From the IMG/VR virus record IMGVR_UViG_3300031992_000044: a stretch of 64,000 nt of DNA, one strand, 5' to 3'. Shown piece by piece: positions 2,375 through 30,641 of the stretch. A program made the translations under genes and the position numbers. Source of the stretch: a virus. The notes under the pieces were generated by a model. It did not search any database and was not told the origin of the DNA. It worked only from the letters and a program-made list of their open reading frames with translations. Each line of letters begins with the position of its first letter. The first letter of the stretch is position 1.

Positions 2375-3094
2375 CTATGCAGCTTTTTTGAGGCTCGTAG
2401 AGGCCTTTTTAGAGCCCGTAGAGCGCTTTGTTTTCTGCAGGTGGATAACATTAGCCTTGCGATCTTTCTTGGCCTTAGCGAGGCGTTCTCGCTTTGCTGT
2501 AAATGCAGTTTTTTTGCTACGTTTCGTGCGATTCGTATTACGTGACACATTGGCAAACTTACGACGTTCCTTAGCTGCTTTCTTAGCTTCTGCCGTATTG
2601 TTTGAAGGCTTCTTCACCTTAATAGGCTCTGATTTAGGAAGTACAGATTCGAACTTCTTAGCGTACGGGTGGATACTAGCAAATGTCCCTATTGTTTCAC
2701 GAACTTTTGCCAATACTGACTGATCACCTTCTATCAGTGCCCAGCTGAATGTCTCCTTCTTCTTAGTAAGAATAAGAAGTTTACAGTTAATCTTAGCATT
2801 CTTCAGGGCCTGTACTGCCATGTCTTCCATTCCTGAATGGAATATTACATGTATACTATACTGATTAGGCTCCTTGAGCTGCTTCTTCAGCTTTTCTACG
2901 CACTCGTTAATCTGTTCTTCAGACATACCCATTCGCTTTGCACGACGCTTAAGAGCATTTACACGACGGTTCTCGTATTCCTGCTCCTTTGCTTTACGAA
3001 TCTCTTCCTTAGACTTTATAGTCTTTACCTTACCTGTTGGTACTTTTGTGGCCTGACCATTCTTGGTAGTTTCCACAGATGTATTTTTATTCAT
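2375..3094 (-). CDS. Hypothetical highly basic K/R-rich protein (239 aa)
   Basis: ORF-track ORF. ATG is preceded by the recurrent leader TTATCAAA-ATG. It ends in TAG used as a stop; readthrough would run over the next gene's start. C-terminus is ...LKKAA. Confidence 0.75.
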   Translation of the reverse strand: MNKNTSVETTKNGQATKVPTGKVKTIKSKEEIRKAKEQEYENRRVNALKRRAKRMGMSEEQINECVEKLKKQLKEPNQYSIHVIFHSGMEDMAVQALKNAKINCKLLILTKKKETFSWALIEGDQSVLAKVRETIGTFASIHPYAKKFESVLPKSEPIKVKKPSNNTAEAKKAAKERRKFANVSRNTNRTKRSKKTAFTAKRERLAKAKKDRKANVIHLQKTKRSTGSKKASTSLKKAA

Positions 3095-3119
3095 TTTGAT
3101 AATGCTTTATTAGTTAATA

Positions 3120-3494
3120 TTATGCTACTTTTTTGTAGCGAATCAGACCCGTTGCTTCCGGATCCCATTCATAGCGAACACCTCGCATATAGAACCCTGC
3201 TATTTTACGTGCAGGCATAGACGTTACTTTTGCATGCACAACAGGTGCTGTCTTCTCCTTCTTTGGTTGGATGACTATATCTATGTGGTTCACATTGAAA
3301 CGCTGTTTCATTTCTTCACGTGTAAATGTAGTACGCTTACGGTATATCTTTATTTTTACGTACTTCTGCTTTTCAGCATCCCATACACGTTTTGTTCTAT
3401 ATTGACACGAGGTTTTAGCTCGACGTTCTTTTCTTTCTTTTTCACCGCCGAAGAACTGAGTCTTCTTTAAAGTGGATAAATTCTCTTTTGCCAT
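3120..3494 (-). CDS. Hypothetical basic protein (124 aa)
   Basis: ORF-track ORF with the TTATCAAA-ATG leader and a TAA stop. Confidence 0.7.
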   Translation of the reverse strand: MAKENLSTLKKTQFFGGEKERKERRAKTSCQYRTKRVWDAEKQKYVKIKIYRKRTTFTREEMKQRFNVNHIDIVIQPKKEKTAPVVHAKVTSMPARKIAGFYMRGVRYEWDPEATGLIRYKKVA

Positions 3495-3543
3495 TTTGAT
3501 AACAGTTTAGAGGGTTTGACATATTTTTGGGAAAATACATTTG

Positions 3544-3614
3544 TTGGGTCACACGGATTCGAACCATGACTAAGGGAACCAAAATCCCTTGTGCCGCCAT
3601 TACACCATAACCCA
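3544..3614 (-). tRNA. tRNA-Gln (anticodon UUG)
   Basis: Hand fold: TGGGTTA/TGACCCA acceptor (U1-A72), D arm GTGT-AATGGCG-GCAC, anticodon arm AGGGA-TTTTGGT-TCCCT, T arm CATGG-TTCGAAT-CCGTG. Confidence 0.85.
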
Positions 3615-3621
3615 GAGTTGC

Positions 3622-4164
3622 TTATATAGCAAGCTCAGCTTTAAACTCATCCGCAACAGAAGTAATCTCAATACTTGTATTAGTATTAAACTCCTCCATA
3701 GCAGCATCGAAGTTCACCGCTTTAAGCTGCAACTCCTTAATGAGAGAAGCAATCTTAGCTGAGGTAAACACCTCATCCTTACCCATCTTAGATGCGCCAC
3801 CCTTCTTCGACTTAGTAGCCGGATCCAAAGTAGGAACCATCTTAAGCTGAGCAATAGCCTCCTTCATCTCGGTGGCCATAAAAATATTATAATTATTTGT
3901 CTTCTTAAACTTCTCCTTATCGAAAGTAGTCTCACCCATATTCAGATAGAAGAGCATACCCTTGATAAGCACAAGCTTCTCTGACATCTGCATAATCTCA
4001 TTATACAGAGCCTTGAGGTCATACTTACGGAAACCGTTCTTAACCTCCTTCGTGGACAACAAGTTGGTTGTTCGGATCTGCATCCAATTATCCTTCTTTT
4101 TCTTATCGATGTCCTTACGAATATTAATGATGTTCTTAGAGTTAAACTTTATTGATTTCGTCAT
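3622..4164 (-). CDS. Hypothetical protein (180 aa)
   Basis: ORF-track ORF with a TAA stop 8 nt before the tRNA-Gln 5' end. Confidence 0.75.
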   Translation of the reverse strand: MTKSIKFNSKNIINIRKDIDKKKKDNWMQIRTTNLLSTKEVKNGFRKYDLKALYNEIMQMSEKLVLIKGMLFYLNMGETTFDKEKFKKTNNYNIFMATEMKEAIAQLKMVPTLDPATKSKKGGASKMGKDEVFTSAKIASLIKELQLKAVNFDAAMEEFNTNTSIEITSVADEFKAELAI

Positions 4165-4244
4165 ACGCGTCTTGATTTAAGTTTATACTATACTTGAGAA
4201 CATCTGCCTACGTAATCTATGGTGGATACGATCCCCCATAAACT

Positions 4245-4287
4245 AAAAAGTATCCTAGGTAGAGCAGTCCCTCAAGACTACTCTACC
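4245..4287 (-). terminator. Candidate terminator hairpin downstream of 4415..5008
   Basis: Minus-sense GGTAGAG-(AGTC..GACT)-CTCTACC extended hairpin. A T5 run follows, but 8 nt away from the stem. Confidence 0.4.
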
Positions 4288-4414
4288 AGACTCCCTCGAG
4301 AGTCATATAGGATAAGATATTGTTGCTTTCTTTTATGCTTCTTTTTGTGTATAATACATATTGCGATAGTTTTCAATCAGTGACCCCACGAGGTATGATT
4401 TAATCTCTTCGAGA

Positions 4415-5008
4415 TTAGTTTTCTTCTATTACAGTATGTACACCAACAACGCCAAGTTCGCACTCCAGAAATGCTTTTCCAGTTGCATCAGGAAAACGCA
4501 CCGTTTTGTGAGTTTTTCCATCTATGTTGACATTAACATTCACAGGATTGTTGACCGGTACAGCAACACGAGCTACGCTCGGGCCCGACTTCCCCAGGGA
4601 TCCCTCGAGATCCGCTCCACCCTTGTTATTACATACATGATCATAACATTCCTGTAGACGCTTTACAACCCAGTTGTACTCTTTCTCACGCTGTGACTTT
4701 TCCATCAGTTCGCGTCCAAGCCCTTTTTGTAGGGCTTCCTTATTACCTCCTGCAGAGAGGTCCACCAATGCATCCCATACAGCCGAAACGAATGCATGGA
4801 ATGTTAGTGGGAATTGACATTTGATAAGGCGATTCCACCACCAATACCTGGTTTCACCAAGCACTACGATACCAGAATCATGTACCTTATATGTCACATA
4901 GGGTCTACCCTCCTCTCCCGCAGACATTACTTTATTACGAATCGTCTCGTTGAGCATCAATCGCTCAATGTTCAACTTCGAATCCGGTGTGAGGAGTTTC
5001 TTCTTCAT
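4415..5008 (-). CDS. Hypothetical protein (197 aa)
   Basis: ORF-track ORF with a TAA stop. Its start lies 3 nt after the stop of 5011..5679. Confidence 0.75.
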   Translation of the reverse strand: MKKKLLTPDSKLNIERLMLNETIRNKVMSAGEEGRPYVTYKVHDSGIVVLGETRYWWWNRLIKCQFPLTFHAFVSAVWDALVDLSAGGNKEALQKGLGRELMEKSQREKEYNWVVKRLQECYDHVCNNKGGADLEGSLGKSGPSVARVAVPVNNPVNVNVNIDGKTHKTVRFPDATGKAFLECELGVVGVHTVIEEN

Positions 5009-5010
5009 GG

Positions 5011-5679
5011 TTACTCAGCGCCGCTAGTAGCCGATACTTCAACCATAGCACTCACGTCACCCTTCAGGATGTCACGGAAGTCTACGGTCTCTATCTTGGT
5101 CTCCTGGAGCTCCTTGGCGAACTTCTGAGCCTTCTTGGTGTTGTCATTGATGGCACCAATCAGATTCTGCTTAATACTATTCAAAGCCTTAATAAGGGCC
5201 TCAACAGCGTTGAGCTCTGACTTGTTGGCATCGTTGATAACAGTAGCTACTGCTACGGGGTTGAGGAAGAAATTCTCGCCTTCACCCTTGAGGGCGTCAG
5301 CTATTGCCTCGGGAGTACCCTTCACCAGGTTGAATATGTCCTTGTTGAGGGGGAAGAACTGATCGAATGTTCCGTCCTGACGGAGGTTGATTGCGATACC
5401 CATCTCACCAGTGACAGGACGCTGATAATACTGAGCGCCGAAGATATCGACGTCCTTCAGCATATACTTGTTAATCTTGCGGTTGGGGATCAACATGGTG
5501 GAGAGACCGTTACGAACTTTCTCGTTGTCGGCATCCCAGCCCTGATCGCCACCCTGCCAGGTGTTACGAGATTCTACCTTGTGGTAAGCCTGGCCTACCA
5601 ACGAACCAACCATAGATCCGATGCCGCGACTTGTAGGAATTGCAGCCTGGATATTAATGTCAATGTTTTTTGTTTCCAT
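5011..5679 (-). CDS. Hypothetical protein (222 aa)
   Basis: ORF-track ORF with GC3-rich codons, suggesting good expression. TAA stop. Confidence 0.8.
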   Translation of the reverse strand: METKNIDINIQAAIPTSRGIGSMVGSLVGQAYHKVESRNTWQGGDQGWDADNEKVRNGLSTMLIPNRKINKYMLKDVDIFGAQYYQRPVTGEMGIAINLRQDGTFDQFFPLNKDIFNLVKGTPEAIADALKGEGENFFLNPVAVATVINDANKSELNAVEALIKALNSIKQNLIGAINDNTKKAQKFAKELQETKIETVDFRDILKGDVSAMVEVSATSGAE

Positions 5680-7795
5680 TTTTTTTCTTATCCTTTTTGA
5701 TATCGTTATTGATTAACTAACGATAAGAATTAATATTTCCTCCACTTATGGCGGGAGGGTAACCTTTGAGTTTGAAAATGTGGCGTTCTGGCTCAAAGGC
5801 TCTACGAACGTTTATCTTTAGATCTTTTAATGTTAATATCTTTATGCGTGCTCACGAGAGCAATCTTTTTTCATCCAATAGGATCTTCCAGCTAGATAAA
5901 TTACGTAGCACGAACACTATTTCATTTATCGGGGACTCAGCGATAGAGTCAGCCATGCCCATCATTAGAAGATTGTTGTATTTTCTGTAAAAGTACAAAA
6001 AGTGATATATTGTAACCAAACATAAGATCCATTGAGATTATGTTAATAAATAATTTACATGCACTGAATGTTTTCAACACTATTCGTTGGCAGCATTTCA
6101 CAAGGACTACTGTTCGTAGAATATGCTTACTAAACCCAGCGGCATTTAACCAACAAAAATTGTGTAATTCTTCCTAGCGTATTTTCCCGTTTTGCTTGGA
6201 ATCCTTACCATGTTTCTGAATATTTAACGAGACTAACAGCAACATTAACGTTCTCGTCCACGCTCAGCATAAGGCATCTCATGCGTAGACATGTTTTATT
6301 ATCGGAATGGTCTAGAGCTCCAGAACTCATTATGGACCTACGGTTTTTTGTTGTACATTCAGCTTTACTGCTGTCTTCTGTTTATAGTGCGCGAATACTG
6401 GAGGAATTCCACCTCATACGCTATAAGATTTATCACCCACCTAAAGATTCACTTTGTCGAACTCTCCTTCAATTTCCTCAAAAGGTATGGATCTCCGGTT
6501 TGCTTTACCCCTCCGAGACAGGGAGGTGATTTCATTTCACGATAGGCTGCCTTACATCGTTTACGTATATTGACTTTATACTTTCTACCCACATAGATTT
6601 GCTGTCTATGCTTCGCTTCGTTGCGTATTCTGTCTACTTGCTTCTCAGGAACGGTTGGCACTCGATTTCTTGGCGTGAAAGCACCCACAAGCGTTACAAA
6701 CGGGGTCTTTATCTTCTCCCAGCCAAGGGACATCTATTAGATTTAACAATATATTTAATGTAACGATATTTTCATAAGCCTTATCTTAGAATCAAGTTAT
6801 GCCGCACATAAGTTTACTACTCTCACTGATATAGTATAACAGGTTCAGGTCTTATTATCTTTTGCATTACACGAGCGATCTCCTTCTGTACTGGATGTAC
6901 AGTTCTCGAATCGACCCTATCTCACTATAAAATAACTTGGGTTTGACTGTCAGGTTGTCATCCTTCGACTCCAGCATTTCCTCTGGTACATCTCCAATCT
7001 ATATTACTTAACTATCGCTTATCATAGTCTTTCATACCTTTTGAATAGTCTTTCACCCCGGACTTCACTCGGGTAGCATTCAGTCCTCTAGGACTATACT
7101 CCGCATTATGTGGCGCATCCACATGTGGTCATTTACTTTTAGCACGAATCAATTCCACGTGTCTTATACCGCTTGAACGACCAAAGCCTGGCGGTCACCT
7201 TCATCATATTTTTCTCAGTACCCCATCCCCGGCACCCCTTCAACGGAGTCGTGCTGAATCGAACAGCAAGGACTTCTCCAAGGAACGTAGTTACGGTACG
7301 TCGCAGACAGTTAAACCTTCTGCTAGGCTCATATACTCCAGTAGTTTTCATCCCTTCATACACGCTGTGGAGGCGTGGAACACTAGACTACAGCTTAATT
7401 TGTGATACATCCGTATACTCTTTGGATTAGTATACGCTGCAACTCGTGTAACGTGATTCTAGGTCTATGTAATCTCTCGAAACCTAGATCTATCGATACG
7501 GTTCGTTTTGCGCTTCTTGCGACTTATGTGTCTTCTCTTGACTACCCTCACCAGACGGTTCTCAGGGACCAGAATAGGGTTGATACAACGCTCTCCCTAA
7601 TATCCACAAGCTTTTCACACTTGCGATCTTCCATCCTACCTTTTGAGTTTCTCACCCGTTGAGCGGGCTAACATATTCTCGGATCAAGTAAATTTGCGTA
7701 CACGGCTAATGAGACCGTTGCCTTAGCTGTACTGACGTGCTGCCAAACTGGCTGGGGGATACAGGCAGTGTCCCATATCCCCCGCACCGGAGTGA
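5680..7795. ncRNA. ORF-free, hairpin-dense block (2.1 kb); candidate structured noncoding RNA(s)
   Basis: Only short scattered ORFs in all six frames. In the parts I checked (6961-7140 for TAA and TGA; 7061-7800 for TAA only) no minus-sense frame stays open for long. Two sampled 120-nt windows (7181-7300, 7541-7660) are 53% and 47% GC by my count. Many perfect hairpins, for example CGTATAC..GTATACG at 7411-7437. Shares motifs with the other ORF-free blocks. Confidence 0.35.
7245..7268 (-). other. Isolated tRNA T-arm-like module inside the ORF-free block
   Basis: Minus-sense TGCTG-TTCGATT-CAGCA (7252-7268) followed by CGACTCC. GGAG occurs just 5' of the arm. No canonical D or anticodon arms found. 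Confidence 0.3.
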
Positions 7796-8254
7796 TTATC
7801 GCTTATAGACTTCCTCACCGTCGACAATGAGGATAATGGACTCTTTAGGAGATCCAATAGTGTCTGCGGGATTCTCCTCTCGACCCGCACCGAAGTTGTT
7901 TACAACAGGTGGATCAGGTAAGATAGCTGGAATGCTATCGCCTAAACGTTTCTCTGTTGCACGTGCAGGCTTCGGCGCCCGTACGTATTTTATTTTATAC
8001 ACAATACTGTCTCTATAAACAGTATCGGGTACTGTAGTATTGCCAAGACATTCTTGACAAGTAGTATCTTTCTCCAAATTCAATTGGAGATCAAGAGGCA
8101 GCTTTCCGTACTTATTTGGAGCCCAATTAAGTACAGGTGCTGCGCTCGCAGACTTATAGTCTGTGCTATCGTCATGCGAGGGCGCGTATATGGCCAATCC
8201 AGTTCCGCCAATGGCAAATAGGATGGCGCATATAATGGTTGTTATATGTCTCAT
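7796..8254 (-). CDS. Hypothetical protein with N-terminal signal/TM segment (152 aa)
   Basis: ORF-track ORF with N-terminus MRHITTIICAILFAIGGTGLAIYA and a TAA stop. Confidence 0.7.
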   Translation of the reverse strand: MRHITTIICAILFAIGGTGLAIYAPSHDDSTDYKSASAAPVLNWAPNKYGKLPLDLQLNLEKDTTCQECLGNTTVPDTVYRDSIVYKIKYVRAPKPARATEKRLGDSIPAILPDPPVVNNFGAGREENPADTIGSPKESIILIVDGEEVYKR

Positions 8255-8295
8255 CTTTGATAGAATTAACTTTACAACTCTGTTTGCAGGAGTTT

Positions 8296-8350
8296 GTCCA
8301 GCAATGACCTTGTTTTACTTCCGAAGCGCACTAAGTACCCATTGCTGGAC
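8296..8350. other. 11-bp perfect inverted repeat (intergenic stem-loop)
   Basis: GTCCAGCAATG (8296-8306) pairs with CATTGCTGGAC (8340-8350). It lies between the stop of 8352..9761 and the start of 7796..8254. Confidence 0.5.
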
Positions 8351-8351
8351 T

Positions 8352-9761
8352 TTAGGCGTTTTTTTCTTCTTCAGCTTTCTCCTCAGGCTTTGCAACAATC
8401 TTTAGCTCACCGATGTTTGCCTCAGAATAGTTGTTGTTCTTAGCAAGAGGACCACGGAACAAGTTCAGGATCACACCACCACGCTGTGCACAATTGTGAA
8501 GAAGAGAATCTTCGTCTACAGTTGCTACATCAACACCTTTGTGGTATGTGTCCATAATGTTGCGCACAAGGCGACGTGCTGACTTATAACTCTCGCTGTT
8601 CTCGTCTTCAGACTTGTAGCCGTCCTTTAGACTGTCAACAATGTCAAACGACGGATTGTTAACAATGTCGAGAATCTGTTGCTGTTTCACGATCTTGTCT
8701 TCACAAGCCTTGATGACAGTTTCAGCAGCCTTCTTGTGACTTACATCACCTTTACGCTTCTCAATAGCGCGCTTCTGTTCTGCGATTGTCTGGTTTGCAC
8801 CATTGATCACAGAGTTGCAGGTCCAGGTAATGATAGTCTTGACGATATCAGCGATAAACTGGTCGTCATGATCCACGACGCCGGTCTTATTGTTGGTAGC
8901 GGCTCGGCGATGAAGGCAAAAGGCAGAGATTGGACTCCCTGTCTGAGCAGTCTGACCACAATAGATCTTACCTATGCCGCTGAAGATAAACGGGGAATCT
9001 CCTACAACTTCGGTAATGCTCTTCAGGATGTCTATCCTTGAAGTATTGTTGATCTTCTCGAGTTCTGCGTTCTTCTCTTCTTCTTTCTCAATCTTGTTAG
9101 CCTGAATCTTCAGGTAAGACTGATAGAAGTTGATTGCACGCTGAATACGCTTGTCTGGAGTATCCAGAACACTCGTCAGAAGAGCAACGAGAGCATCATG
9201 AAGCTGCTTCTCATTCTCGATCTTCGTTGGATCGGTAATGGCTTTCTCCGCGGATTTCAGTTCCTTCTTCTTCTGCTCAACGACCTTTTCGTCGACGTCT
9301 TTGGCGTCTACGTTAATCACACGTGTCTGTGCAGGGAGAAGCTTGATGCCCTGAGCCTCAAGTTCTTCTTCTGACGGCTGTGGCAGAGCATTAAAGTCGG
9401 GCAGTGCGATTCCCATATTGGCCAACAGGAGACGAGTCTGTGCATACTTCTCCTCATCGGTACCGATGATGCGCGACACAAGACTGTGACCCTGTGCGAT
9501 GTCAGTGACAATGGCGTCAGCCATATATGCATCACGGAGAGCCATACTGTTCTCCTTGATGTCACCGTTAACATTGTTACCGTGCAGCCATTCGTCGTTA
9601 ATAAGACGTGCCATGGTAACTTTGCTATCAAGAGACATGCGATCTACCTTCTTGTTGGGATCTGCTGTTACTTTTGTCTCTTGAGCGCTGCTGCTGGGAG
9701 CAGCATTTTCATTCTTCTTTTCAGCAGCAATCTCGGCTGCTGTCTTTTGTTTCTTTGACAT
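8352..9761 (-). CDS. Hypothetical protein (469 aa)
   Basis: ORF-track ORF 8352..9800. The first M of the track is GTG. The ATG at 9761 carries the TTATCAAA-ATG leader, so I prefer it as the start. Confidence 0.8.
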   Translation of the reverse strand: MSKKQKTAAEIAAEKKNENAAPSSSAQETKVTADPNKKVDRMSLDSKVTMARLINDEWLHGNNVNGDIKENSMALRDAYMADAIVTDIAQGHSLVSRIIGTDEEKYAQTRLLLANMGIALPDFNALPQPSEEELEAQGIKLLPAQTRVINVDAKDVDEKVVEQKKKELKSAEKAITDPTKIENEKQLHDALVALLTSVLDTPDKRIQRAINFYQSYLKIQANKIEKEEEKNAELEKINNTSRIDILKSITEVVGDSPFIFSGIGKIYCGQTAQTGSPISAFCLHRRAATNNKTGVVDHDDQFIADIVKTIITWTCNSVINGANQTIAEQKRAIEKRKGDVSHKKAAETVIKACEDKIVKQQQILDIVNNPSFDIVDSLKDGYKSEDENSESYKSARRLVRNIMDTYHKGVDVATVDEDSLLHNCAQRGGVILNLFRGPLAKNNNYSEANIGELKIVAKPEEKAEEEKNA

Positions 9762-15189: not shown

Positions 15190-15259
15190 AGCGAGTGTGG
15201 GACTCGAACCCACCAGTTTACAGATTTACTGAAACTTACCGACTGCGAACAGACTCGCT
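15190..15259 (-). tRNA. tRNA-like gene with a non-canonical central region (possible pseudogene)
   Basis: Perfect acceptor AGCGAGT/ACTCGCT and T arm GTGGG-TTCGAGT-CCCAC. No standard D stem. The anticodon region folds as AGTTT-(12-nt loop CAGTAAATCTGT)-AAACT. Confidence 0.4.
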
Positions 15260-16044
15260 CCACCCACTTAGGTAGGGTTCACCGACTTCACGCTGCCTCC
15301 TTGAGACCCGTGTAGTCAACGATATTATAATCGCCGTTTAAATTTATATCAAAGCGTTTAATGTCTTACTTTCCACTGCTGTCAAATCCAGTCAGGCCCA
15401 TAATGCCCACATACGGCCTACGAGTGGGCTGCGCAGATAGTCACCCCTTATTCGCTCTATGTGACAGATAAAACTTGGGACTTGCCGTGGACCTGGAGGG
15501 ATTCGAACCCTCGTCCAACAGCTCATTCTGGGACACGCTAAGATTCTTGTGTAGAACGTTCTGATGATCGGTCAAAACATTCAATTTAAGGCTATTTTCA
15601 GGCTCTCTGAGACGTTTTCTAGGCTTTTGTGGGTAGCTATTCCACTCAAGCTTTAAAATGGCTTAGAAAGGCTTATTTTAGCCTTAAATAAAGGTTGAAT
15701 ACGTTGGTCTACCACTGGCTCGAAGGCTCACAATAGGGCGTATTCGCATTCTTGAAACTGTTTTACAGCAAAAGCTGACTCTATGGTTCAGTAAAACTCA
15801 TAGTTCTTGATCTAATGCCCACATATTATTACACCGTGTGGACGGTGGTATCACCCCGTGGCACTGGCTCAAAGGCTCGGACCTAGATTGCGAGTGTCGC
15901 TCCCTGTCGGACTGAATATAGTTAATATAAAGGCGAACTTCAGAAACTATATTATTACCGATCTTCTATAACGTATTCTGCTTTCTTTTTATAGAGTATT
16001 GGCTCAAAGGCTCGGACTCTACGGATGATGGGTGCTCTCAGAGA
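15260..16044. ncRNA. ORF-free structured block with internal repeats; candidate noncoding RNA(s)
   Basis: No ORF of 60 aa or more. TAATGCCCACATA occurs twice (15401-15413, 15813-15825), each followed 20-26 nt later by TCACCCC. TGGCTC(A/G)AAGGCTC occurs at 15716, 15865 and 16000, and also at 5789. Hairpin AAGGCT..AGCCTT is present. Confidence 0.35.
15489..15512 (-). other. Isolated tRNA T-arm-like module
   Basis: Minus-sense GAGGG-TTCGAAT-CCCTC followed by CAGGTCC-A. No matching GGACCTG 5' strand was found in 15521-16040. Confidence 0.3.
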
Positions 16045-30566: not shown

Positions 30567-30641
30567 TGCTCCATGGTGTAGCGGTAGCACGGGAGGCTCT
30601 AACCCTCCAGGTCCGGGTTCGACTCGATGGTGGGGCGACCA
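30567..30641 (+). tRNA. Amber suppressor tRNA (anticodon CUA), Gln-like, with encoded CCA
   Basis: Acceptor TGCTCCA/TGGGGCG (two G:U pairs), then A-CCA. D arm TG-GTGT-AGCGGTA-GCAC is identical in stem to the tRNA-Gln(UUG) of this window. Anticodon arm GGAGG-CTCTAAC-CCTCC. T loop TTCGACT is present, but I could not pair a clean 5-bp T stem by hand. Confidence 0.75.

Follow-up and report, generated by a model that had tools for sequence, protein, structure and literature searches.

A conserved ORF-free block of crAss-like phage genomes as a candidate locus for a large structured RNA

Large structured RNAs and a gap in a crAss-like phage genome

Large structured RNAs other than rRNA are very rare, and GOLLD, ROOL, and OLE have each raised structural and functional questions. 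GOLLD, from Lactobacillales and their phages, is about 0.8 kb long, and ROOL (rumen originating) is about 0.6 kb long. Here we describe a locus in a 64,000-nucleotide (64-kb) stretch of viral DNA, IMG/VR record IMGVR_UViG_3300031992_000044 (referred to below as the window). The window is a portion of a crAss-like phage genome, and its closest GenBank relatives are cr272_1 and cr273_1, both from pig faeces. The locus is a block without long open reading frames (ORFs) at positions 5680 to 7795, probably read on the minus strand, between the stop codon of a 152-aa ORF (7796 to 8254) and the ATG of a 222-aa ORF (5011 to 5679); both bordering ORFs are on the minus strand. An earlier reading of the sequence alone (the sequence-only reading) had proposed a large structured RNA of no recognizable class at this position, and that proposal is supported here by synteny, length constraint, conservation, and compensatory changes. 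The block is very probably a functional element at the RNA level. We also favor, with moderate confidence, the view that it is a noncoding RNA locus whose main product is one large, structured, processed RNA acting in trans. That the block corresponds to one stand-alone RNA of at least 1.4 kb is a proposition for which we judge the balance to be about even.

GOLLD resembles the block in being a large, conserved, structured noncoding RNA that is carried by phages near tRNA genes and that has many helices with conserved junctions. The block differs in that it matches no GOLLD model in Rfam, has a core of ∼1.4 kb and a total length of ∼2 kb, and resides in crAss-like phages that infect Bacteroidota; unlike for GOLLD, a long-range multistem architecture is not established here. 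ROOL is likewise a large RNA associated with phages or prophages of the gut or rumen and found near tRNA genes. In contrast to ROOL, the block again lacks an Rfam match, is roughly three times longer, and is fixed at one syntenic location within a single phage lineage. OLE, which forms a ribonucleoprotein with OapA/B/C, shares with the block a large size and conserved single-stranded segments, and the conserved A-rich linkers described below could plausibly, among other readings, point to a ribonucleoprotein role. However, no Rfam match to OLE was found, and whereas OLE has dedicated proteins, the neighbors of the block yield no conserved partner gene. GOLLD, ROOL, and OLE have been shown by cryo-electron microscopy to form RNA-only homo-oligomers (PMC12286853).

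The sequence-only reading could place the block in no RNA class, and covariance-model searches agreed. All 4,227 models of Rfam 15 were used, including those for GOLLD, ROOL, OLE, raiA, HEARO, group I and II introns, RNase P, rRNAs, 6S RNA, and riboswitches. At gathering thresholds, the whole window contained five tRNAs and a permuted transfer-messenger RNA (tmRNA), none of which lies in the block. At an E value of ≤10 on positions 5500 to 8000, the sole match was a spurious one to PrrF (20.6 bits versus a gathering score of 90), and at an E value of ≤5, eight homologous loci gave nothing within the block.

Group I and II introns resemble the block in size range, in their many conserved unpaired adenosines, and in their domain-wise organization, and delta-group crAss-like phages frequently carry such introns (PMC7886860). 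An intron was considered and rejected. The block matches no Rfam intron model and contains no ORF or intron-encoded protein. The ORFs on either side are independent genes that have stop and start codons of their own, and a conserved operator-like hairpin precedes the downstream ATG. The block is found at the same locus in every genome and is not mobile. Close to its 5′ end, the window copy has a GTGCG that recalls the group II 5′ motif GUGYG, but relatives do not conserve it.

A 2023 screen of IMG/VR intergenic regions reported 8,495 candidate structured RNAs of 29 to 151 nt (mean, 67 nt) (PMC10690425). It used the same contig collection and the same covariation logic, and its anonymous candidates may include individual hairpins of the block. 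The published description mentions no crAss-like phages and describes no 1.4- to 2-kb unit. We found no description of the element in the main crAss-like genomics papers or in two large structured-RNA screens, a search outside which subscription-only papers fell. On these comparisons, the block belongs to no known family and is nearest in kind to the phage-associated GOLLD and ROOL.

If this reading is correct, the RNA would rank among the largest structured nonribosomal RNAs known in a phage and would represent a new giant structured RNA class, two to three times the length of GOLLD or ROOL. Delta-group crAss-like phages, which have been described as the largest group in the crAss virome of the human gut (PMC7886860), infect dominant Bacteroidota. 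A 1.4- to 2-kb RNA that outdoes most early proteins in conservation would be a major unannotated gene of these viruses, in whose current GenBank records the block is either empty or occupied by spurious small ORFs. The locus offers more than 100 natural variants for structure modeling, a defined genomic context, and an attached putative translational operator that is directly testable.

Conservation, coding potential, and covariation of the block

In every relative examined, we observed a gap at the same position, either unannotated or carrying noise annotation. Gene order around it is constant: a sigma factor gene, a small gene, a gene of ∼1.4 to 1.7 kb, a gene of ∼0.4 kb, the block, and two genes of ∼0.55 to 0.65 kb. 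Downstream of the sigma factor gene, an ORF-free block of 1.85 to 2.5 kb was found in the Oafivirinae (Darmviridae) and in all four Suoliviridae subfamilies, with lengths of 2.0 to 2.4 kb in Oafivirinae, about 2.1 kb in Loutivirinae, about 2.5 kb in Boorivirinae, 2.1 kb in Bearivirinae, and 1.85 to 1.9 kb in Uncouvirinae. A lemur phage (Dulem virus 42) has a block of about 2.1 kb, tiled by 15 tiny mixed-strand ORFs. Further Oafivirinae relatives of the window are cr7_1, cr124_1, cr130_1, cr131_1, and a Bohxovirus. GenBank places the Oafivirinae in Suoliviridae; because the 2026 NCBI taxonomy lists this subfamily under Darmviridae, the element covers two families (Darmviridae and Suoliviridae) under current names.

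Motif scans of IMG/VR matched at least 94 and at least 119 contigs, mostly of about 100 kb. From all loci, at least 110 full-length copies were extracted, in which the distance from the 5′ to the 3′ motif ranged from 1,884 to 2,250 nt (median, 2,012 nt). Among 35 sequences less than 95% identical to one another, mean column conservation was 0.55 to 0.80 over most of the block versus 0.25 to 0.56 in the adjacent genes. The downstream 222-aa protein, used as a tblastn query, found only cr130 and cr131 among GenBank phages (27 to 32% identity); in contrast, blastn detected the block in all of these genomes. Positions shared among Oafivirinae, Loutivirinae, and Boorivirinae run from ∼7735 to ∼6296, followed by almost none until the last 60 nt, and the invariant stretches include AUCCGAGAAUAUGUUAGC, CAAAAGGUAGGAU, UGAGAACCGU, GCCAACCG, and UAUUCGUGCA. 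The block is conserved above its neighboring proteins and is homologous in five subfamilies. The sequence-only reading had stated that it would be undermined by a lack of conservation or covariation in relatives or by many conserved micro-ORFs; conservation and covariation are present in relatives, and conserved micro-ORFs are absent.

The lack of coding capacity that had been read from the sequence was borne out. The longest ORF in 5680 to 7795 encodes 94 aa, and TAA occurs in every minus-strand frame, as had been reported for part of the block, with 17 to 22 copies per frame (10 to 19 per frame on the plus strand). On the minus strand, the longest open frame reaches 104 codons if TAG is decoded as sense, 122 if TGA is, and 158 if TAA alone terminates; on the plus strand, termination at TAA alone leaves a longest frame of 262 codons. 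Every subset of stop codons tried on the block failed to open a gene-sized frame. In alignments with close relatives, the period-3 substitution ratio was 0.0 to 1.4 in the block, with one window at 3.8, compared to 6.2 to 7.4 in the flanking genes.

These results bear on whether the block could be a protein gene that has decayed or is decoded unconventionally, or else a conserved set of micro-ORFs. Such a gene might be suspected from the suppressor tRNA(CUA) of the window, from the rough doubling of long frames in the plus-strand half when TAG is read through, from the small ORFs that GenBank annotates inside the block in some relatives, and from the one 150-nt window with the weak period-3 value of 3.8, where a conserved AUG could open a small ORF. 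However, TAA is found throughout all frames and no reassignment opens any of them, and the period-3 signal, clear in the two flanking genes, is absent across the block. The annotated ORFs are on different strands and at different positions from genome to genome, and nucleotide conservation in the block exceeds that of the adjacent real genes. A micro-ORF starting at the conserved GGUAGGAUG was rejected, as its length varies from 4 to 58 codons and its start is ACG in some genomes. A protein gene recoded by TAG or TGA reassignment was likewise rejected on the absence of an open frame under any recoding and on the negative period-3 signal. The coding tests already contradict a protein gene here, and we give it next to no chance.

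Evidence for structure came from compensatory change. In a mutual-information scan that was blind to folding, the top column pairs were nearly all Watson-Crick or G-U, local, and stacked into helices. RNAalifold applied to the 35-sequence alignment predicted 247 pairs in 57 helices, with 90.5% canonical cells. Compensatory changes, counted for a pair if seen in at least two sequences, were present in 138 of the 247 pairs, versus 41 to 48 when partners were shifted by 1 to 3 columns. The consensus energy was −273.6 kcal/mol, compared to −31 to −43 for column-shuffled alignments. For a second, nonoverlapping set, made up of 18 Loutivirinae, Boorivirinae, and other sequences, there were 242 pairs, of which 96 were compensatory (19 to 29 with shifted partners), and the consensus energy was −177.9 (−32 and −42 in the controls). 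Helix covariation is therefore observed in two independent clade sets. For the domain at 7400 to 7120 (33 pairs), 90.6% of cells were paired, versus 33 to 44% with slid partners and 72.2% in shuffles; doubly changed cells numbered 203, versus 19 to 42 with slid partners and 64 in shuffles, none of 500 of which reached 203.

A covariance model, R1, was built exclusively from 21 Oafivirinae-type 5′ domains. In the 64-kb window, its sole match (161 bits) was at the 5′ domain. In every other lineage it gave one strong match per genome, on the expected strand and at or abutting the 5′ end of the gap, with E values ranging overall from 1e−22 to 6e−7: 1e−18 to 1e−19 in Loutivirinae, 1e−16 to 5e−8 in Boorivirinae, 2e−8 in Bearivirinae, 2e−7 and 6e−7 in Uncouvirinae, and 4e−17 in the lemur phage. 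In the alignment fitted to R1 (A7), whose covariation count leans towards structure through that fitting, 19 of 23 pairs changed on both sides, and 95% of cells were paired versus 36 to 52% with slid partners. The block, detected by R1 once per genome, can serve as a nucleotide marker for the lineage.

The RNA is probably read from the minus strand, a call that we make with good confidence because of consensus energy, G-U dominance, the adenosine bias of unpaired columns, and the orientation of the neighbors. Consensus energy was −273.6 on the minus strand and −240.0 on the plus strand. G-U was the commonest pair at several positions of well-supported helices in the domain at 7400 to 7120, for which a hand tally gave about 152 G-U cells versus about 24 A-C cells. 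The strongly conserved parts of the block are chiefly unpaired linkers that are adenosine rich in the minus sense: among unpaired columns at least 90% conserved, A numbered 109, U 44, G 28, and C 16.

The same observations address whether the element instead acts as DNA, for example, as an origin, a packaging or recombination site, a set of hairpin promoters, or a protein-binding array, with covariation maintaining DNA hairpins or cruciforms. The strong consensus folds on both strands, an equivocal G-U versus A-C count under symmetric pairing rules, and unremarkable folding energy would fit such an element, and the invariant stretches could be protein-binding sites. However, the G-U pairs that are commonest at several covarying positions would be A-C mismatches on the opposite strand, and conserved unpaired positions are strongly biased to A on one strand. 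The T-loop motif and the operator-like hairpin at the ribosome-binding region, both described below, make sense as RNA alone. A replication origin was considered separately and rejected: cumulative GC skew drops steadily through the block and reaches its minimum at ∼27 to 28 kb, where gene orientation also switches, and the block is without iterons or repeats. Within 5000 to 8500, we found no repeat family and just short two-copy matches at chance level; a CRISPR array or a tandem or interspersed repeat element was rejected, as that interval holds no repeated units. We regard action as DNA as very unlikely.

In favoring a large RNA, we took into account several results that weigh against it. 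Folding energies in the block are no lower than those of shuffled sequence. The covariation counts come from related sequences (model fitted in the case of A7), so that independent events are overstated. Long-range covarying helices equal a parallel-helix null (10 versus 10), whereas local ones exceed it (15 versus 2); because the long-range helices equal the null, a single global fold is not established. About 27% of consensus columns are paired. Under symmetric pairing rules, all candidate helices together gave 498 G-U versus 457 A-C, an equivocal result for strand. A sequence scan detected no sigma-70-type promoter or intrinsic terminator bracketing the block on the minus strand, although such scans are uninformative on whether a discrete RNA is expressed. 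In cr130, conserved sequence begins about 30 nt after the upstream stop codon. From the sequence, cotranscription with the upstream genes followed by processing seems likelier than transcription from a promoter of its own.

Most of the cues that had first drawn attention to the block also fail to separate it from its flanks. The sequence-only reading called it locally GC rich; the block is 41.6% GC (39.3% for the whole window), and its 200-nt windows average 0.42, equal to the flanking 2 to 12 kb. It was also called hairpin dense, which did not hold up as a matter of folding energy. Over 200-nt windows, the mean z score of the minimum free energy (MFE) in the block was +0.26 on the minus strand and −0.14 on the plus strand, versus −1.75 and −1.37, respectively, for flanking coding DNA. 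Of the motifs said to be shared only with other ORF-free blocks, one bears out that claim, as described below.

Under the reading that we favor, the core (∼7735 to 6296, ∼1.4 kb) would consist of dozens of short helices together with highly conserved, adenosine-rich single-stranded joins, and with the variable 3′ part the RNA would reach ∼2.0 kb. It would arise within a long transcript running leftward, or else start at a promoter that overlaps the upstream gene, and would then be processed out to work in trans during infection, as a scaffold or the RNA of a ribonucleoprotein, as proposed for GOLLD and ROOL. The last 50 nt would form a separate cis-acting hairpin on the ribosome-binding region of the next gene, probably controlling its translation. 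In a more specific and tentative version, which we hold to be somewhat less than an even bet, a single processed RNA of ∼1.4 to 2 kb defines the former "delta" crAss-like lineage (Darmviridae and Suoliviridae) as a new giant RNA class and serves as a machine or scaffold in host takeover. Such an RNA may act, for example, on the translation apparatus, a suggestion made because the block shares its strand with tRNAs and a permuted tmRNA and because the phage has an amber suppressor tRNA and apparent TAG recoding of late genes.

Domains of the core and the operator-like 3′ hairpin

The conserved structured core (6296 to 7735, minus strand) is the part shared between subfamilies and holds most of the covariation-supported helices. 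Its 5′ domain (7539 to 7699, minus strand) begins with helix P1 (AUCC/GGAU), inside which lie a hairpin and the invariant sequences AUCCGAGAAUAUGUUAGC and CUCAAAAGGUAGGAUG; two more hairpins follow P1, and then UGAGAACCGUCUGGUGA. P1 occurs as AUCC/GGAU, GUUC/GAAC, ACAG/CUGU, and GUGG/CCAC. On this evidence the domain appears to be a multihelix junction closed by P1 and is one of the two most complex features that we consider defensible, the other being the candidate pseudoknot described below.

Two perfect hairpins singled out in the sequence-only reading are present in the window copy. At 7754 to 7783 on the minus strand, just past the upstream stop codon, GGGGGATA and TATCCCCC form a perfect 8-bp stem (reported as 7755 to 7785). 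At 7412 to 7436, also on the minus strand, CGTATAC and GTATACG form a perfect 7-bp stem (reported as 7411 to 7437). Both are lineage specific: the first occurs only in the close relatives L005 and L004 and is absent or different in other genera, and other genera carry a longer, different insertion at the site of the second.

The best-supported local helices follow. A three-tier minus-strand hairpin with a conserved UCCAAA-like loop (7350 to 7381) has 81 to 100% paired cells (alignment A4, helices 1 to 3), and eight of its nine pairs change on both sides; its columns are also among the top mutual-information pairs. Two adjacent minus-strand hairpins at 7284 to 7323, GCAGA...UCUGC and GACGUA-CCGUAAC-UACGUU (A4 helices 4 and 5), have 9 of 11 pairs doubly changed, and RNAalifold scored 5 of 5 and 6 of 6 of their pairs as compensatory. 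The next hairpin (7253 to 7267, minus strand) had been described as a complete tRNA T arm. Its sequence, GCUG-UUCGAUU-CAGC, forms a 4- to 5-bp stem that is kept in most relatives, with a T-loop-like loop of UUCGAUU or UUUCGAUUA across genera and stems such as GACG/CGUC, ACUG/CAGU, and CAG/CUG; 67% of cells are paired, in a region where the alignment is poor. A tRNA or tRNA-like element was rejected, as ARAGORN and the Rfam tRNA model call none in 5680 to 7795.

At 7126 to 7196 (minus strand), GACCGC..UGGUCG..GCGGU..UGACCA could form a pseudoknot. Helix 8 (UGGUCG/UGACCA) is 94% paired with three doubly changed pairs; the crossing helix 7 (CCGC/GCGG) is invariant save for one CG-to-AU exchange in four sequences, and the pseudoknot is a tentative candidate. 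Farther 3′ on the same strand lies an invariant single-stranded motif, GAGUGCCAACCGU (6651 to 6663), within which GCCAACCG is the same in 10 of 10 sequences from three subfamilies. The most conserved part of all runs from AGGUGGGUGAUAA to GUAUGAGGUGGAAUUCCUCCAGUAUUCGCGCACUAUAAAC (6380 to 6442, minus strand) and includes the hairpin GAGGUG..CCUCC; a 17-mer from this region, TATTCGYGCACTATAAA, was found in at least 94 IMG/VR contigs, mostly crAss-like genomes of about 100 kb. Searches with 13 conserved motifs as antisense found no convincing complementary site elsewhere in the 64-kb window, giving only matches of the shortest motifs with one or two mismatches, to which no significance value was attached.

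These domains raise the question of whether the block is instead a cluster of independent small RNAs or signals, such as processing sites, protein-binding hairpins, and regulatory RNAs, that are kept together. All supported helices are local, spanning at most 100 nt, with long-range ones equal to the null, and there are many lineage-specific hairpin insertions. One hairpin motif recurs beside the tmRNA. Close relatives also exchange modules, as in the variant that L005 carries at 7330 to 7200. On the other hand, the parts hold to one order and spacing, and the block to its total length, throughout 110 copies and five subfamilies, and the strongest conservation is in single-stranded linkers, which would be unexpected for autonomous hairpins. 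The P1-closed multihelix junction and the candidate pseudoknot also speak for larger units. We therefore consider a cluster quite unlikely and continue to favor a large RNA.

The exchange in L005 deserves separate mention. A flanking protein of this contig is 99% identical to that of the window, and yet its hairpins corresponding to 7330 to 7200 are cr272-like variants, which suggests that RNA modules have been exchanged between lineages by recombination. Its 3′ region is ∼200 nt longer than that of the window (L005 positions 2677 to 5000 versus window positions 5680 to 7795).

The 3′ region (5756 to 6295, minus strand) is poorly conserved: there is almost no conservation between subfamilies, and values within Oafivirinae are 0.35 to 0.65. 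Even L005, which is 99% related, differs from the window by ∼200 nt in the length of this region. A peripheral RNA domain is one possibility for it; a promoter and leader of the downstream genes is another. Near its 3′ end, at 5784 to 5810 on the minus strand, is the hairpin CGUUC-[GUAGAGCCUUUGAGCCA]-GAACG, whose loop carries the GAGCCUUYGAGCCA motif (GAGCCUUUGAGCCA). Its stem covaries in relatives (CGUUC/GAACG, CAUUC/GAAUG, and ACAUC/GAUGU).

The final hairpin (5686 to 5728, minus strand) resembles an operator. Its 3′ strand covers the AAGGA region, 5 to 9 nt before the ATG at 5679. The 110 copies contain 45 sequence variants of it. The outer helix has at least eight covarying variants (for example, UCUUAUC/GAUAAGA, UCAUAUC/GAUAUGA, GUGUC/GACAC, and AUGUUC/GAACAU), the inner 4-bp helix covaries too, and the loop AUCAA is conserved; RNAalifold scored 6 of 10 pairs as compensatory. 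The 5′ strand has a possible alternative proximal partner. The hairpin is conserved across the copies examined, which are of the Oafivirinae, Loutivirinae, and Boorivirinae types, and it has the look of a translational operator or a two-state switch for the 222-aa ORF.

This hairpin alone recalls the MS2 coat protein operator, the T4 RegA and gene 32 sites, and switches that sequester ribosome-binding sites, with which it shares a covarying stem that buries the ribosome-binding region near a start codon, a conserved loop, and alternative pairing. The likeness is an analogy of mechanism to an element known here from sequence. Bacteroidota rely little on Shine-Dalgarno pairing, and for that reason the occluded AAGGA may act differently.

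The hairpin also bears on a reading of the whole block as a giant cis-acting intercistronic leader in a polycistronic early or middle transcript, one that is never released and that controls the stability, processing, antitermination, or translation of the genes from 5679 onward. The covarying 3′ hairpin hides the ribosome-binding region of the next ORF and has switch-like alternative pairing, and the GAGCC hairpin lies ∼110 nt upstream of the ATG at 5679. A leader would also be in keeping with the lack of a detected minus-strand promoter or terminator at either end and with conserved sequence that starts tens of nucleotides past the upstream stop codon in some genomes. However, ∼1.4 kb of conserved, covarying structure far exceeds the needs of any known bacterial or phage leader, and ∼540 nt that are not conserved between subfamilies separate the core from the operator. 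Moreover, the downstream protein is poorly conserved, while the core is nearly invariant in places. We consider a leader of this kind unlikely, and the preferred interpretation remains a large trans-acting RNA with a separate hairpin at its 3′ end.

Genomic neighborhood and recurring motifs

Genes in the window are on the minus strand from 1 to 27 kb and on the plus strand in the remainder. Four of the five tRNAs found are on the minus strand; these four, together with the permuted tmRNA, lie in the minus-strand half (Rfam and ARAGORN), and all genes around the block, as well as the tmRNA, are also on that strand. Among the six to ten neighboring genes searched by sequence against Pfam, PHROGs, NCBIfam, and PDB, the sigma factor alone has a family. 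A conserved 482-aa protein encoded upstream of the block has a confident, all-helical AlphaFold model (pLDDT, the predicted local distance difference test score, of 79), and this model has no fold match in PDB (best E value, 0.2).

The GAGCC motif recurs within the window. The sequence-only reading had noted that TGGCTCAAAGGCTC at 5789 is found again at 15865 and 16000, and this recurrence is confirmed, with 0 copies expected by chance; a one-mismatch copy is present at 15716. As GAGCCUUYGAGCCA, copies are found at 5784 to 5810, 15716 to 15729, 15865 to 15878, and 16000 to 16013, all on the minus strand. Three of them, ∼140 nt apart, lie a short way upstream of the permuted tmRNA. At least three copies lie in the loop of an inverted repeat, with stems that differ among copies. 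Possible roles for the motif are those of a processing signal, a site bound by protein, or a phage promoter that drives RNA genes. Two further shared motifs had been listed. TCGTGCTGARTC does occur at both 7249 and 18648 (0.01 expected). In contrast, CTACCCACAT at 6585 and 21927 is at chance level, with two or more copies in 2 of 100 shuffles. The claim that these motifs are limited to other ORF-free blocks stands for the GAGCC motif and fails for the rest. Other ORF-poor DNA in the window (17.8 to 25.5 kb, 7.7 kb) was considered as a similar RNA and rejected, with 1 to 2% blastn coverage in cr272 and cr273 versus 37% for the block.

The permuted, two-piece tmRNA is at 15197 to 15577 on the minus strand, with a predicted tag peptide of GDYNIVDYTGLKEAA, and relatives have a permuted tmRNA at the same place. 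A tRNA with anticodon CUA (amber suppressor) is at 30567 to 30641 on the plus strand. On the plus strand of 28001 to 64000, frames of at least 200 codons increased from 13 (5,069 codons) to 20 (9,724 codons) when TAG was read through, a rise that is consistent with TAG recoding of late genes. TAG recoding is known in delta-group crAss-like phages (PMC7886860).

GenBank ORFs do fall within the homologous block of some genomes: L002 5310 to 5792, L008 5407 to 5913, L314 2695 to 2880, L315 9873 to 10034, and L318 9967 to 12082. Those on the opposite strand include cr7_1 gp52 and a Bohxovirus coding sequence (CDS), small ones include cr10_1 gp22 and cr114_1 gp096, and the Dulem virus 42 gap contains its 15 tiny mixed-strand CDS. 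Because these ORFs vary in place and strand across genomes and one of them overlaps the R1 match, they are probably artefacts of gene calling.

A scan of bacterial and archaeal genomes with a loose search pattern yielded, among the 120 matches listed, 119 chance matches and one true one. The true match, L116 (JAJWOH010000001.1; 101,563 bp), is a crAss-like contig deposited within a Segatella copri metagenome-assembled genome, and its block copy is 94.6% identical to cr7-like copies. The binning with Segatella copri may be a weak hint of the host or an artefact. Finally, the most stable fold in the 2- to 12-kb region is at 8001 to 8200, inside the 152-aa ORF just upstream of the block, with an MFE of −72.2 kcal/mol on the minus strand (z = −6.95; plus strand, z = −4.35).

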